64,000 bases of DNA from Escherichia coli (GTDB taxonomy: Bacteria; Pseudomonadota; Gammaproteobacteria; Enterobacterales; Enterobacteriaceae): the NCBI RefSeq assembly GCF_003334305.1, contig NZ_QOWS01000009.1; one strand, 5' to 3'. Numbering within the stretch: position 1 is the stretch's first letter; each line of letters starts with the position of its first letter. Both the position numbers and the translations under genes were made by a program. Shown here one piece after another: positions 12,646 through 18,069 of this stretch. Below the pieces are notes generated by a model. It was not told where the DNA came from. It saw only the letters and a list, made by a program, of their open reading frames with translations, and ran no database searches.

Positions 12646-12764
12646 TTCCTGCCACGTAAACCCCTCATCGGGCACTAAAACAGCAATACAAAAATATAAC
12701 CCTCTGTAAATTACAGGGCATGGTGAGCGGCTTCGCTATGCCCAAAATCTGGAGAAAGCTCGCT

Positions 12765-14057
12765 ATGGATATTCCCGTTAATGCAGCAAAGCCGGGGCGT
12801 CGGCGTTATCTGACGCTGGTGATGATCTTTATTACGGTGGTCATTTGTTATGTTGACCGCGCTAACCTGGCCGTGGCTTCCGCCCATATTCAGGAAGAGT
12901 TCGGCATTACGAAAGCGGAAATGGGCTATGTATTTTCGGCCTTCGCCTGGCTTTATACGCTATGCCAGATCCCCGGCGGTTGGTTTTTAGATCGCGTAGG
13001 TTCTCGCGTGACTTATTTTATTGCGATATTTGGTTGGTCAGTGGCGACTTTATTCCAGGGCTTTGCCACGGGATTAATGTCATTAATTGGTCTGCGTGCG
13101 ATAACCGGTATTTTCGAAGCGCCCGCTTTCCCGACCAATAACCGGATGGTGACCAGCTGGTTCCCGGAACATGAACGCGCTTCCGCCGTTGGTTTTTATA
13201 CGTCTGGTCAGTTTGTCGGTCTGGCGTTTTTGACTCCGCTGCTGATCTGGATTCAGGAGATGTTGAGCTGGCACTGGGTGTTCATTGTCACTGGTGGTAT
13301 CGGCATTATCTGGTCGCTGATTTGGTTTAAGGTTTATCAGCCGCCGCGCCTGACCAAAGGTATCAGCAAAGCTGAACTGGATTACATTCGTGATGGCGGC
13401 GGTCTGGTGGATGGTGATGCGCCGGTGAAGAAAGAGGCGCGTCAGCCGTTAACAGCCAAAGACTGGAAACTGGTGTTCCATCGTAAACTGATCGGCGTTT
13501 ATCTTGGGCAATTTGCGGTGGCTTCTACACTGTGGTTTTTCTTAACCTGGTTCCCGAACTATTTAACCCAGGAAAAAGGAATCACGGCGCTGAAAGCAGG
13601 CTTTATGACCACGGTGCCATTCCTCGCGGCGTTTGTCGGCGTCCTGCTCTCTGGCTGGGTCGCGGATCTGCTGGTACGTAAGGGCTTTTCACTGGGCTTT
13701 GCGCGTAAAACGCCGATTATCTGCGGCTTGCTGATCTCCACCTGCATTATGGGCGCTAACTACACCAACGATCCGATGATGATTATGTGCCTGATGGCGC
13801 TGGCATTCTTCGGCAACGGTTTTGCTTCGATTACCTGGTCGCTGGTCTCTTCTCTGGCACCGATGCGCCTGATTGGTTTAACCGGCGGCGTGTTTAACTT
13901 CGCCGGTGGTCTGGGCGGCATCACCGTTCCGCTGGTGGTGGGGTACCTGGCGCAGGGTTACGGTTTCGCACCTGCACTGGTTTATATCTCCGCCGTCGCG
14001 TTGATTGGCGCGCTCTCTTATATCCTGCTGGTGGGCGATGTGAAGCGCGTTGGCTAA
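12765..14057 (+). CDS. dgoT: D-galactonate:H+ symporter (MFS)
   Basis: Track ORF 12720..14057; start set at [15 protein letters not shown] to give 430 aa; multi-TM MFS. Confidence 0.85.
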
Positions 14058-15118
14058 TCCTTCAACTGTGGAATATGTGCCACACCACTGCGCATAATCC
14101 ACTTTCTTAAAGCCGGTGCGGTCAGGCATCGGCTTTTTACTATCTTGCCGAAGAGTTTTAAACGCAGTTTGCGGGTGGCGCGCCAGTAAGCGGCGTTGCT
14201 CTTCTCCGGCTGTTTCAGGAACACCGCACGCAGAATCTCTGCGCTATCCAGCGCATAGCTAATCCCCTCCAGCGAGCTGGCGCTGATAAATCCCGCCGCT
14301 TCGCCAATCAGAAAGGCGTTGTCCTTACCGCAGACAAAATCCTGCCAGCGTGAGGGAAACAGCACCGTGCATTTTTCGCTTTTCACCGCTTTGCCAAACT
14401 GGAACTGAAAGGCGCTCATTTTCTCTTTCAGCGTCGTGAAACGCGTCTGACCGTCTTTCATTGGATAAGCACCGCCAAAGATAAAATAACCGTCTTTGCT
14501 GATACTCCATGAGTAACAGTCAGTTATCGCATTATCAAAGATGCAGGAGTAGAACAGCACCGGATGTTTCTCTGCGAACCACTGCTGGATAGCGACATAT
14601 TTACGAATTTGATGATCCGGGTAGAGATGTCGCCGCACCATCGAGTTTGCGCCATCGGCACCGACCAGATAGCGGGCAGTAATATGTTGCTCCCAGCCGT
14701 CTGCACGAAAAATGACATGCCATTTATCATCCTCACGCCAGATTTTTCGACACAGGCTGTCGTGATAAACCTCAACGCTGGCGGGGATCAGCGATTTCAT
14801 CCACAAGTCGAAAGCATGGCGATTAATATTGATATAGCTTCGCTGGTAGTTACGCGTGAGCGATGCGGCGACGTCGACAGTTTTGACGCTGAAAATCTGC
14901 GGGTTGGCGATTACATCGACAGGAAGCGTCAGTCCATCGCGAATAAAAGATCGCTGCGCGTCCGGTGCCAGCAGACCGCCACAAGGTTTGCTGAAACCTT
15001 CAGTACCATGCTGGTGCTTTTTATCCAGCGCGATCACCTGCATTTTGCCAGCTAACTTTCGTGCCAACGCCGACCCTGCCGGGCCGAGGCCAATAATCGC
15101 CACGTCGAAATGTTCCAT
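14054..15118 (-). CDS. cbrA: FAD-dependent oxidoreductase CbrA (colicin E2 tolerance)
   Basis: Track ORF 14054..15139; start at [19 protein letters not shown] (FAD Rossmann GxGxxG), 354 aa. Confidence 0.85.
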
Positions 15119-15182
15119 CTTTTCACTCACATTCATCACGATGGCAAAAGACTATTGTCTGAAAGTGAAGTCCTTGTGAAGT

Positions 15183-16433
15183 ATGATGGCGGGAACCGTT
15201 TTGTATCAGGACCCCGCCATGAAACAGATAACCTTTGCTCCCCGTAATCACCTGCTCACCAATACCAATACCTGGACGCCCGACAGCCAGTGGCTGGTAT
15301 TTGACGTGCGTCCTTCTGGCGCGTCGTTTACCGGCGAGAGCATTGAGCGTGTGAATATCCATACCGGCGAGGTCGAGGTTATCTATCGCGCGTCACAGGG
15401 CGCACACGTCGGCGTGGTGACCGTTCATCCGAAGTCAGCGAAATATGTTTTCATCCATGGCCCGGAAAATCCTGATGAAACATGGCATTACGACTTCCAT
15501 CATCGGCGCGGAGTCATTGTTGAAGGCGGCAAGATGAGTAACCTTGATGCGATGGATATTACCGCGCCGTATACGCCTGGAGCGCTGCGCGGCGGCAGCC
15601 ATGTGCATGTCTTTAGCCCGAACGGTGAAAGGGTGAGCTTTACCTATAACGACCATGTAATGCATGAACTCGATCCGGCGCTGGATTTGCGAAACGTCGG
15701 GGTTGCTGCGCCGTTTGGCCCGGTCAACGTACAAAAGCAGCATCCGCGTGAATACAGCGGTAGCCACTGGTGCGTGCTGGTGAGCAAAACCACGCCCACG
15801 CCGCAGCCTGGCAGCGATGAAATCAATCGTGCTTATGAAGAAGGATGGGTAGGAAATCACGCGCTGGCATTTATTGGCGACACACTTTCGCCAAAGGGCG
15901 AGAAAGTGCCGGAGCTGTTTATCGTTGAGTTACCGCAAGATGAAGCTGGCTGGAAAGCGGCAGGTGATGCGCCGTTAAGTGGAACGGAAACCACCCTGCC
16001 CGCGCCACCGCGCGGCGTCGTGCAGCGACGTTTAACCTTTACCCACCATCGGGCTTATCCGGGGTTAGTCAACGTCCCGCGCCACTGGGTGCGCTGTAAT
16101 CCGCAGGGTACGCAAATCGCGTTTTTAATGCGTGATGATAACGGCATTGTGCAACTGTGGCTTATCTCGCCACAGGGCGGCGAGCCGCGCCAGTTAACCC
16201 ATAACAAAACGGATATTCAGTCTGCATTTAACTGGCATCCGTCAGGAGAATGGTTGGGCTTTGTGCTGGATAATCGAATTGCTTGTGCCCATGCGCAAAG
16301 TGGCGAGGTTGAGTATTTAACCGAAAACCACGCCAATCCGCCTTCTGCGGATGCCGTGGTCTTCTCACCGGATGGTCAATGGCTGGCGTGGATGGAAGGT
16401 GGCCAGCTGTGGATCACCGAAACTGATCGCTAA
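15183..16433 (+). CDS. yidR: Uncharacterised protein YidR
   Basis: 416-codon track ORF; start may be the second Met at 15186. Confidence 0.8.
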   Translation: MMAGTVLYQDPAMKQITFAPRNHLLTNTNTWTPDSQWLVFDVRPSGASFTGESIERVNIHTGEVEVIYRASQGAHVGVVTVHPKSAKYVFIHGPENPDETWHYDFHHRRGVIVEGGKMSNLDAMDITAPYTPGALRGGSHVHVFSPNGERVSFTYNDHVMHELDPALDLRNVGVAAPFGPVNVQKQHPREYSGSHWCVLVSKTTPTPQPGSDEINRAYEEGWVGNHALAFIGDTLSPKGEKVPELFIVELPQDEAGWKAAGDAPLSGTETTLPAPPRGVVQRRLTFTHHRAYPGLVNVPRHWVRCNPQGTQIAFLMRDDNGIVQLWLISPQGGEPRQLTHNKTDIQSAFNWHPSGEWLGFVLDNRIACAHAQSGEVEYLTENHANPPSADAVVFSPDGQWLAWMEGGQLWITETDR

Positions 16434-16434
16434 A

Positions 16435-16767
16435 TCAGTTATCAGGCATTCTGGCCGGTGGAATAACCGCATTGGTGGCTTGCGCGTTGGCTTCGCTTTT
16501 TTCAACGCGCGAGCGCACCGAGCTGTCTTTGCGGAACACATCCCACGGCAGTAAAAGCGTGTCCATCACAGCGGTAAACGGCATATCGAGAATCGCCAGC
16601 GACTTAGTGCCCCAGTTGGTTTCATCGTCGCCAATCATGGTGGCGCTGGCGCGGGTGCCGGGATACGTTCCTTCTTTCCCCCCGGTATGGGACATCACGC
16701 TGGAGCATCCTCCGAGTAATGTCATTCCGCTGCATATCATGAACGCTAACAACACATTTCTTATCAT
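16435..16767 (-). CDS. yidQ: Putative lipoprotein YidQ
   Basis: Track ORF 16435..16842; start at MIRNVLLAFMICSGMTLLGGC (lipobox), 110 aa. Confidence 0.8.
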   Translation of the reverse strand: MIRNVLLAFMICSGMTLLGGCSSVMSHTGGKEGTYPGTRASATMIGDDETNWGTKSLAILDMPFTAVMDTLLLPWDVFRKDSSVRSRVEKSEANAQATNAVIPPARMPDN

Positions 16768-16941
16768 AATAAATTCATCTGTTGATCGTGGGTGTTGGCC
16801 TGATGAGTTATAGCGATCCCTTGCTGAAAATAACATCATCATTACGTCGCTCTGTGGCGGCTATCGCACTTTAACGTTTCGTGCTGCCCCCTCAGTCTAT
16901 GCAATAGACCATAAACTGCAAAAAAAAGTCCGCTGATAAGG

Positions 16942-16970
16942 CTTGAAAAGTTCATTTCCAGACCCATTTT
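16942..16970 (+). promoter_or_regulatory. Sigma-32 heat-shock promoter of ibpAB
   Basis: cTTGAAA, 14-bp spacer, CCCATtTT matches the sigma-32 consensus TTGAAA-N13-15-CCCCATNT; about 100 nt upstream of ibpA. Confidence 0.65.
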
Positions 16971-17071
16971 TACATCGTAGCCGATGAGGACGCGCCTGAT
17001 GGGTGTTCTGGCTACCTGACCTGTCCATTGTGGAAGGTCTTACATTCTCGCTGATTTCAGGAGCTATGATT

Positions 17072-17485
17072 ATGCGTAACTTTGATTTATCCCCGCTTTA
17101 CCGTTCTGCTATTGGATTTGACCGTTTGTTTAACCACTTAGAAAACAACCAGAGCCAGAGTAATGGCGGCTACCCTCCGTATAACGTTGAACTGGTAGAC
17201 GAAAACCATTACCGCATTGCTATCGCTGTGGCTGGTTTTGCTGAGAGCGAACTGGAAATTACCGCCCAGGATAATCTGCTGGTGGTGAAAGGTGCTCACG
17301 CCGACGAACAAAAAGAGCGCACCTATCTGTACCAGGGCATCGCTGAACGCAACTTTGAACGCAAATTCCAGTTAGCTGAGAACATTCATGTTCGTGGCGC
17401 TAACCTGGTAAATGGTTTGCTGTATATCGATCTCGAACGCGTGATTCCGGAAGCGAAAAAACCGCGCCGTATCGAAATCAACTAA
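17072..17485 (+). CDS. ibpA: Small heat-shock protein IbpA
   Basis: 137 aa from [20 protein letters not shown]; alpha-crystallin domain. Confidence 0.9.
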
Positions 17486-17596: not shown

Positions 17597-18025
17597 ATGC
17601 GTAACTTCGATTTATCCCCACTGATGCGTCAATGGATCGGTTTTGACAAACTGGCCAACGCACTGCAAAACGCCGGTGAAAGTCAGAGCTTCCCGCCGTA
17701 CAACATTGAGAAAAGCGACGATAACCACTACCGCATTACCCTTGCGCTGGCAGGTTTCCGTCAGGAAGATTTAGAGATTCAACTGGAAGGTACGCGCCTG
17801 AGCGTAAAAGGCACGCCGGAGCAGCCAAAAGAAGAGAAAAAATGGCTGCATCAAGGGCTTATGAATCAGCCATTTAGCCTGAGCTTTACGCTGGCTGAAA
17901 ATATGGAAGTCTCTGGCGCAACCTTCGTAAACGGTTTACTGCATATTGATTTAATTCGTAATGAGCCTGAACCCATCGCAGCGAAGCGTATCGCTATCAG
18001 CGAACGCCCCGCGTTAAATAGCTAA
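17597..18025 (+). CDS. ibpB: Small heat-shock protein IbpB
   Basis: 142 aa from [20 protein letters not shown]; tandem paralogue of ibpA. Confidence 0.9.
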
Positions 18026-18040
18026 CTAGCTATTCTCTTT

Positions 18041-18069
18041 GCCCCGCCATTCTGGTGGGGCTTTTTTTA
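18041..18069 (+). terminator. Rho-independent terminator of ibpAB
   Basis: Hairpin gccccgccattctggtggggc followed by tttttttat. Confidence 0.75.

Follow-up and report, generated by a model that had tools for sequence, protein, structure and literature searches.

The locus between the dgo operon and ibpAB of Escherichia coli raises two linked questions, namely what the products of its three genes, cbrA, yidR and yidQ, do and whether their close packing reflects a common task or mere neighbourhood. The window analysed here (the whole stretch of 64,000 nucleotides) is E. coli chromosome, and the three genes are ordinary, already catalogued core genes: several E. coli chromosomes match the region at 100% identity, and coverage of 80% or more is found in 5415 of the 5426 complete genomes of the species. 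The explanation that we favour, with a probability of roughly 70%, is that these are three separately transcribed core genes, neighbours and not a module, CbrA being a lipid reductase, YidR (by inference) a propeller protein dealing with sugar acids and YidQ an outer-membrane lipoprotein.

The original prediction had set the trio directly between the dgo operon and ibpAB, with cbrA on the minus strand and divergent from yidR, and with yidQ convergent with yidR. All three open reading frames were found where it had put them, from the 3' end of cbrA at 14054 to 16767, where the yidQ start codon begins, and the order, strands and identities agree with the ORF coordinates, with the RefSeq annotation (dgoT, cbrA, yidR, yidQ, ibpA) and with the E. 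coli genomes just mentioned. cbrA (14054-15118, minus strand), recognized by its ORF, NF008519, TIGR02032 and RefSeq, encodes 354 residues from an ATG (MEHFD...), its frame being open upstream as far as a GTG at 15139; its stop codon overlaps by 4 bp that of dgoT, with which it converges. yidR (15219-16433, plus strand) encodes a single-domain DUF3748 beta-propeller, and yidQ (16435-16767, minus strand) a lipoprotein of 110 residues of the YceK/YidQ (DUF1375) type; the stop codons of these two convergent genes lie 1 bp apart. Neither where dgoT meets cbrA nor where yidR meets yidQ did a terminator search give a convincing site; it returned 2 sites against 4 expected by chance, both of them intragenic. 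Over the window, Rfam reported at threshold only the known ROSE element of ibpA, and the PADLOC models of anti-phage defence matched none of CbrA, YidR and YidQ.

The length of YidR had to be revised. The open reading frame runs from 15183 to 16433 on the plus strand, and the 415-residue form assumed in the original prediction, which is the legacy K-12 annotation and is still current there, begins at 15186. The true start is at 15219, 11 codons downstream of the legacy start, and yields a protein of 404 residues, because (i), N-terminal peptide and Ribo-seq data place it there (PMC5714196) and (ii), the PGAP annotation and comparative sequence both agree with this position. The gene is thus the same as in K-12 (b3689) and was called correctly; its annotated length was not. 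Counted from the true start, the divergent cbrA and yidR genes are separated by 100 bp, as against 67 bp from the legacy start.

CbrA matches the NF008519 equivalog with 681.4 bits (cutoff 303), its residues 1-354 aligning with positions 1-354 of the 355 of the model, and it shows no difference from the K-12 protein (b3690). With TIGR02032, the geranylgeranyl reductase family, it scores 116.4 bits (E 1.9e-33), which is homologous but under the 158.8-bit cutoff, so that CbrA is, as judged from its sequence, a homologous relative of the geranylgeranyl reductases rather than a canonical member. The N-terminus contains a GxGxxG dinucleotide-binding motif (GLGPAG, within residues 8-17), and weak Pfam matches to FAD_binding_3, DAO and Pyr_redox_2 were obtained. 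The RefSeq product name is now 'colicin M resistance lipid reductase CbrA' and the cbrA annotation is carried by thousands of genomes. A review (PMC8469651, citing Barreteau et al. 2020) describes overproduced CbrA as saturating C55-P, lipid I and lipid II at their alpha-isoprene unit; according to the same passage, which draws on Barreteau 2020 and Helbig 2012, colicin M can then no longer cleave these lipids. The reported substrates, C55-P and lipid II and not geranylgeranyl groups, also set CbrA apart from the canonical geranylgeranyl reductases. cbrA is under CreBC control (PMC3599342). By this published work, CbrA is an FAD-dependent enzyme of the CreBC regulon that hydrogenates undecaprenyl phosphate, lipid I and lipid II at the alpha-isoprene unit, thereby blocking colicin M. 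The original prediction held that none of the three genes has a defined biochemical role: this fails for CbrA, given the published saturation of C55-P, and stands for the reaction of YidR and the function of YidQ.

Between cbrA and yidR lies a perfect match (15165-15180, minus strand, reading TTCACAAGGACTTCAC) to the CreB site consensus, the cre tag, which Avison et al. reportedly defined in 2001 as TTCAC-N6-TTCAC. It precedes the ATG of cbrA by 47-62 nt and overlaps the -35 element of a candidate sigma-70-like cbrA promoter (15151-15180, minus strand; -35 TTCACA, 18-nt spacer, -10 AATAGT), that hexamer falling inside the tag. A candidate sigma-70-like promoter for yidR (15159-15187, plus strand; -35 CTGAAA, 17-nt spacer, -10 TATGAT), obtained like the first by a consensus scan, has its spacer almost wholly taken up by the same cre tag and contains the legacy yidR start codons (15183/15186) within its -10 hexamer; the transcription start predicted for yidR is near 15194. 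The perfect cre tag is thus placed between promoter-like sites of cbrA and yidR that are arranged back-to-back, and, since it sits in the spacer of the candidate yidR promoter, the predicted binding of CreB could influence yidR as well. Conservation of the GTGAA-N6-GTGAA core extends to 23 loci, 17 of which have a cbrA-yidR spacer of about 100 bp; the others include a Kosakonia locus with a longer spacer (L049), a duplicate E. coli locus (L001), L008, L024 and L044, and the remaining long-spacer loci (L041, L060 and L062) carry a variant of the tag with one mismatch only. Both hexamers of the candidate yidR promoter are invariant in the Escherichia, Citrobacter and Pseudocitrobacter loci with a spacer of about 100 bp.

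YidQ is a small outer-membrane lipoprotein. It matches the NF008628 equivalog (211.9 bits, cutoff 91) and Pfam DUF1375 (E 1.5e-8) and has an LGGC lipobox at residues 18-21, as had been anticipated for a small lipoprotein, and in equivalog match, domain and lipobox it does not differ from the YceK/YidQ (DUF1375) lipoproteins. The residue at +2 is a serine, and sorting to the outer membrane is therefore expected under the Lol rule; the protein was found in outer-membrane vesicles (PMC7973035). Published data sets tie yidQ to envelope-stress regulators. The intergenic region that separates yidQ from ibpA holds a MarA/SoxS/Rob-type box (gcacgaaacgttaaa; 16870-16884, minus strand), roughly 100 nt upstream from yidQ, and a 15-mer identical to it is the MarA ChIP-seq target 'ibpA<>yidQ' in ETEC (PMC5684230). 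A scan for sigma-E promoters (GGAACTT-N15-17-TCAAA) from 13900 to 17200 returned one weak site only, within cbrA. Ahead of yidQ, the best sigma-E-like sequence (GGACTTT-N16-TCTAT, about 16900-16931, minus strand) was poor by eye and was not adopted.

YidR matches Pfam DUF3748 (PF12566) over the whole model (E 4e-58), as do, for the domain, all 70 of the 70 aligned homologues. The structure prediction and fold search suggested in the original prediction gave a confident model (pLDDT 97) of an all-beta, seven-bladed propeller that superposes on known seven-bladed propellers, the matches singling out no one propeller family; against AFDB50, the search returned unannotated members of the YidR family only. 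Signal peptide and lipobox are absent from the sequence, and YidR is therefore predicted to be cytoplasmic. Among the 70 diverse homologues G121 and Y143 are invariant, and conservation reaches 90% or more at D29, R31, Y91, R96, H128, H130, D145, R158 and W210; the conserved His-x-His, Asp, Tyr, Arg and Trp residues are found mostly in blades 1-4. In the standard propeller topology strand ends and loops form the top face, and it is on this face that most of the conserved residues would lie, as inferred from the secondary-structure string and not from coordinates.

Several more specific identities for YidR were tried and rejected. The legacy name 'ATP/GTP-binding protein' implies a P-loop, and the Walker A motif [AG]x4GK[ST] is absent from this all-beta fold. 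TolB (TIGR02800), with its cutoff of 343 bits, was discarded at a score of 15.5, YidR being wholly propeller, with no signal peptide and no N-terminal alpha/beta domain. An S9 peptidase of the DPP4 type was set aside because the 404 residues are all propeller, with no alpha/beta-hydrolase domain, and the propeller regions alone align; compared with the S9, DPP4 and TolB propellers, built of PD40 repeats, YidR shows a PD40 likeness in blades 5-7 only. Assignment by sequence to the PL22 lyases was dropped since PF14583 (Pectate_lyase22) matched 0 of the 70 family members, and the propeller lactonases were likewise left aside, Lactonase (PF10282) and SGL (PF08450) being absent from the matches of these 70 proteins.

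Do the three genes nevertheless belong together? One could imagine a single module for envelope modification or hyperadherence, with YidR exposed at the surface, and several observations lend themselves to it: annotation subsystems carry labels (for example 'hyperadherence yidQ, yidP, yidR') that suggest a grouping, the substrate of CbrA is a lipid carrier of the cell envelope and YidQ sits in the outer membrane as a lipoprotein, both yidQ and yidR appear in a list of sigma-E-regulon genes (PMC2685091), and YidR is handled as a surface antigen in the vaccine and adhesion literature. The gene neighbourhoods were compared at loci retrieved with a 19-sequence YidR alignment, a search that returned Enterobacteriaceae only, 76 species having enough sequence upstream of yidR and 80 being available downstream. 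yidQ is the next gene after yidR in each of the 80 species, which also speaks for a module. However, cbrA is immediately upstream in only 20 of 76 and is located elsewhere in Phytobacter and Kosakonia; the pairing of cbrA with yidR is lineage-specific, and the grouping implied by the original prediction is not supported. The alternating strands and separate transcription units, and a YidR devoid of signal peptide or lipobox, argue in the same direction. Moreover, yidQ and yidR form a convergent excludon by RNA-seq (PMC12288877), and the array signals that they share may come from overlapping transcripts. We consider a common module very improbable, and retain the explanation by three independent neighbours. 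The linkage of yidR to dgoT is the ancestral arrangement. dgoT is immediately upstream on the same strand, at about 51 bp, in 30 of the 76 species. Nonetheless, yidR is kept in genera without the dgo operon, and in Kluyvera and Buttiauxella it is yidA that is immediately upstream. The region upstream of yidR is a variable insertion spot, so that the adjacency of dgoT may be positional, not functional.

The K-12 RefSeq product of yidR is a 'DUF3748 domain-containing galacturonate catabolism protein YidR', and a single high-throughput study, using the Keio deletion, reported that a yidR mutant grows poorly on galacturonate and gluconate and that yidR is co-expressed with the dgo genes (PMC5293155). 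Our best guess is that YidR is an enzyme or a binding protein acting on sugar acids, which would explain both the growth defect and the co-expression. YidR would bind, and probably transform, a small molecule of the sugar-acid type (an aldonate, a uronate or a lactone), with a metal possibly held by H128, H130 and D145. Hints of a link to carbohydrates come from distant relatives, among them proteins fused with a GH31 glycosidase or with an arylsulfatase, a protein with a T9SS tail and genes with GH1, GH36 or MFS neighbours; in the seven gene contexts of distant homologues that we examined, the surroundings were inconsistent, with no recurring neighbour beyond occasional glycosidases. The Salmonella and Klebsiella literature describes adhesion and biofilm phenotypes for YidR, which are not an obvious consequence of a metabolic role.

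It is tempting to join these elements into one broader reading, which we hold tentatively and at well below even odds. YidR would be the founding member of an uncharacterised enzyme family built on the beta-propeller, probably dependent on a metal and directed at sugar acids, their lactones or uronides; its place in enterobacteria would be a missing accessory step in the use of galacturonate, galactonate or gluconate, and secreted relatives, some fused to GH31 or sulfatase domains, would serve marine and soil degraders of polysaccharides. Separately, the ancestral yidR leader would carry an RNA hairpin of no known class in which the ribosome-binding site is masked, maybe a new translational control element (no Rfam family matched this leader hairpin), lost in Escherichia and Citrobacter, where cbrA and a CreB-controlled promoter would replace it. 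A rival explanation, which we also place well below even odds, is that the YidR propeller has no catalytic activity and serves as a ligand sensor or a scaffold for protein interactions whose loss disturbs sugar-acid metabolism or the cell surface indirectly. Its structural seven-bladed matches are indeed mostly scaffolds (WD40 proteins, TolB and the gating domains of peptidases), the adhesion and biofilm phenotypes are pleiotropic and no sequence match to any catalytic family was found; on the other hand, the invariant His-x-His/Asp/Tyr/Arg cluster persists in very distant taxa, a pattern that suits an active site or a metal site better, and the family's relatives include secreted forms and fusions to a glycosidase and a sulfatase, which also speaks against a scaffold. 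We regard as unlikely a third possibility, that YidR, as a remote counterpart of PL22 in function, carries out the cytoplasmic cleavage of oligogalacturonides or of a related uronide and so supplies the step that E. coli lacks upstream of KduI/KduD. YidR shares 9% sequence identity with the PL22 oligogalacturonate lyase VPA0088 (PDB 3c5m), and the YidR family profile found no PL22 chain among its best 60 matches in the PDB.

All three genes are catalogued K-12 genes, one of them with its biochemistry solved, so that little is at stake for the locus as a whole, and YidR is the sole real functional puzzle of the trio. The supported yidR start codon, the confident YidR model, the invariant residues, the ancestral linkage to dgoT and the predicted shared CreB site now provide experimental handles on this protein. 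YidR is also under development as a vaccine antigen against Klebsiella and EHEC, and the lack of an export signal in its sequence calls into question the surface exposure that has been assumed for it.

The window belongs to the E. coli chromosome. A 3.3-kb query that took in cbrA-yidR-yidQ (14054-16767) matched several complete genomes at 100% identity, and 80% or more of its length was present in 5415 of the 5426 complete E. coli genomes searched. The ORF list and the RefSeq annotation agree on the gene order, namely dgoD and dgoT (plus strand), cbrA (minus, 14054-15118), yidR (plus, supported start 15219, ORF end 16433), yidQ (minus, 16435-16767), ibpA, ibpB and yidE, and they bear out the gene identities, strands, order and position between dgo and ibpAB given in the original prediction; the interval runs from the 3' end of cbrA to the start codon of yidQ. 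Both dgoT/cbrA and yidR/yidQ are convergent, the stop codons overlapping by 4 bp in the former pair (14054-14057) and being separated by 1 bp in the latter (16433-16435), and a search for intrinsic terminators found none credible at either junction. With practically no space between the genes of each pair and no terminator, the transcripts must overlap, and an RNA-seq survey classes both pairs as convergent units with overlapping transcripts, or "excludons" (PMC12288877). Transcription that runs on from the dgo operon through cbrA, in antisense, and into yidR could account for the co-expression reported for yidR and dgo. The start of dgoT itself differs among records (445 aa from 12720 in PGAP, 430 aa in K-12; 12720-12767, plus strand).

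The three genes had implicitly been presented as one group, a view not borne out by the mapping of the window genes onto yidR loci from 80 enterobacterial species. Directly downstream of yidR, a convergent yidQ and then ibpAB are found in all 80 species. Upstream, among the 76 loci with enough sequence, the direct neighbour is cbrA, on the opposite strand, in only 20 (Escherichia, Citrobacter, Pseudocitrobacter and a few others); in 30 it is dgoT, on the yidR strand and mostly at about 51 bp; and in the other 26 it is something else, for instance yidA (the dgo operon being absent), an MFS transporter with a 2-hydroxyacid dehydrogenase, or a regulator of the LysR type. In Phytobacter and Kosakonia, cbrA is found 5' of the dgo operon. 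The mapping thus defines a conserved backbone, gyrB-yidB-yidA-[variable]-yidR, followed by yidQ, which converges with yidR and diverges from ibpAB. That cbrA and yidR adjoin is particular to certain lineages, and cbrA, yidR and yidQ are not one functional unit. That dgoT so often adjoins yidR agrees with the co-expression reported for them, but yidR is also retained where dgo is missing, so the adjacency may be positional. Klebsiella grimontii, Siccibacter and others have gained, between the dgo genes and yidR, a further MFS transporter together with a 2-hydroxyacid (2-ketogluconate-type) dehydrogenase (fetched yidR loci L077:7163-9432, L083:7671-9940, L080:1401-3656 and L034:7201-9457), which is another sugar-acid cassette at the variable spot.

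CbrA had been said to have no defined biochemical role, which is wrong: in C55-P, lipid I and lipid II the alpha-isoprene unit becomes saturated when CbrA is overproduced, and this saturation prevents hydrolysis by colicin M (reviewed in PMC8469651). Colicin M induces cbrA along with creD, cbrB and cbrC, and CreBC exerts positive control on cbrA (PMC3599342). The protein matches the CbrA equivalog model over its full length (681 bits vs a cutoff of 303) and is a clear relative of geranylgeranyl reductases (E 1.9e-33), yet stays under that family's cutoff.

On the cbrA strand, a perfect TTCAC-N6-TTCAC repeat lies at 15165-15180, 47-62 nt 5' of the cbrA ATG. It matches the "cre tag" consensus of CreB, reportedly described by Avison et al. 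(2001). The core of the repeat is kept in 23 loci, including the 17 with cbrA about 100 bp from yidR, and three of four cbrA-yidR loci with longer spacers keep a one-mismatch tag. Consensus scans place the -35 of a minus-strand promoter-like site within the tag, and a candidate yidR promoter on the plus strand (CTGAAA-17 nt-TATGAT, 15159-15187) has a spacer made almost wholly of it; both plus-strand hexamers are invariant in the Escherichia, Citrobacter and Pseudocitrobacter loci, and the candidate -10 contains the legacy start codons of yidR (15183/15186). Taken with the shared tag, these consensus matches and the position of the legacy starts make the gap look like a back-to-back candidate promoter pair with one common CreB site, both promoters being proposed from consensus match and conservation. 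We infer that CreB may also affect yidR.

The 415 aa originally given for YidR match the K-12 RefSeq record, which still carries this length, but the start is 15219 and the product 404 aa on four lines of evidence: PGAP gives 404 aa, close homologues have 404-409 aa and begin MKQI or MKQV, the upstream ATG is not in the yidR frame in Citrobacter, and ribosome profiling with N-terminal proteomics places initiation 11 codons 3' of the annotated start (PMC5714196).

In L027 (8283-8313) and about 40 other enterobacterial loci (e.g. L052:9966-9995, L086:9961-9989), a conserved RNA hairpin, absent from the window, lies 6-9 nt 5' of the yidR start codon. It consists of ACCCUGAUGCG, a 5-7 nt loop and CGCAUCAGGGU, the 3' arm holding the Shine-Dalgarno sequence, and occurs once per locus, in species without the Escherichia/Citrobacter-type cbrA promoter region at yidR; Kosakonia quasisacchari (L049) has cbrA with the cre tag and the hairpin together. 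One pair shows compensatory changes (UA 26, GU 8, AU 7, GC 2), G·U pairs occur on the sense strand only, predicted folding energies are -21 to -26 kcal/mol (z-scores -4.4 to -5.7), and no Rfam family matched. E. coli retains no more of it than a 3' arm remnant, UAUCAGGAC (15203-15211). Around its yidR Shine-Dalgarno, AUGGCGGG (15186-15193) and CCCGCCAU (15212-15219) can form a stem on the plus strand (-16.9 kcal/mol, z -2.35); this stem is kept only in part in other Escherichia species, transcription may start downstream of its 5' arm, and its significance is doubtful.

YidQ (110 aa) matches its own equivalog model and DUF1375, and its lipobox (LGGC, residues 18-21) is followed by Ser at +2, which predicts outer-membrane sorting. 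Outer-membrane vesicles from a tolA mutant contained the protein (PMC7973035). Its gene has been grouped with sigma-E-regulon genes, and its induction lowers viability (PMC2685091); a sequence search for a sigma-E promoter gave nothing convincing. The 15-mer published for a MarA ChIP site (PMC5684230) occurs at 16870-16884. Further on, a sigma-32-type promoter (CTTGAAA, 16942-16948; 14 nt; CCCATTT, 16963-16969) precedes a ROSE_2 RNA thermometer in the ibpA leader (17007-17078, plus; 92.5 bits vs a gathering score of 65), an element already known and annotated by RefSeq. Sub-threshold Rfam matches just past ibpB (17997-18068; anti-hemB 25.9 bits, Hrs1 24.8 bits) are most likely chance matches to the ibpB terminator hairpin.

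YidR matches in Pfam DUF3748 (E 4e-58) and, faintly, PD40/DPP4-type repeats in its C-terminal third, and nothing more. An exhaustive search returned 187 cluster representatives at E < 1e-30; a sequence search of solved structures found no close relative, and a profile of the family aligns with PDB sequences only over the PD40-like blades at the C-terminal end. The structure prediction and fold search proposed earlier yielded a very confident all-beta AlphaFold2 model of 26 strands (70-sequence alignment, pLDDT 97.2, pTM 0.94), and matches in the AlphaFold database to unannotated family members only, from Enterobacteriaceae, Planctomycetes, Bacteroidetes, Kiritimatiellota-type taxa and prasinophyte algae. 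YidR is not TolB (15.5 bits vs a cutoff of 343), lacks the hydrolase domain of S9/DPP4-type enzymes and has no Walker motif for its legacy "ATP/GTP-binding" label.

In the 70 homologues G121 and Y143 never vary, and conservation reaches at least 90% at D29, R31, Y91, R96, H128, H130, T142, D145, R158, W210 and R271, in a motif reading PGALRGG(S/T)HxH...SFTY(N/E)D. The conserved residues all fall in the first four blades, and the secondary-structure string puts most conserved residues at strand ends or adjoining loops. In standard propeller topology these form the top face, where most conserved residues would therefore lie. A check for a signal peptide in E. coli YidR found none; many relatives have signal peptides or lipoboxes, fusions to a GH31 glycosidase, an arylsulfatase or a T9SS sorting tail occur in some, and GH1 and GH36 genes adjoin others. 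Deletion phenotypes and co-expression, also proposed earlier as checks, are available for yidR from a metabolomics screen: its deletion resembles that of dgoT, it is co-expressed with dgoT, dgoD, dgoR and dgoK, and growth of the mutant is poor on gluconate and galacturonate specifically (PMC5293155). Salmonella yidR is induced on lettuce, and the mutant attaches poorly (PMC4103518). Taken together, the missing signal peptide, the fusions and neighbours of the relatives, the conserved residues and the published phenotypes best support the reading of YidR as a cytoplasmic sugar-acid-binding protein that probably also catalyses a reaction on its ligand, a reading given about one chance in three; the protein may have a His/Asp metal site. 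The main rival is a propeller without catalytic activity. A lyase resembling the oligogalacturonate lyases (PL22) is a weaker one, none of the 70 aligned homologues matching Pectate_lyase22 or, for that matter, the lactonase families.

The original interpretation was partly right; the genes were already known, and one has a solved role.
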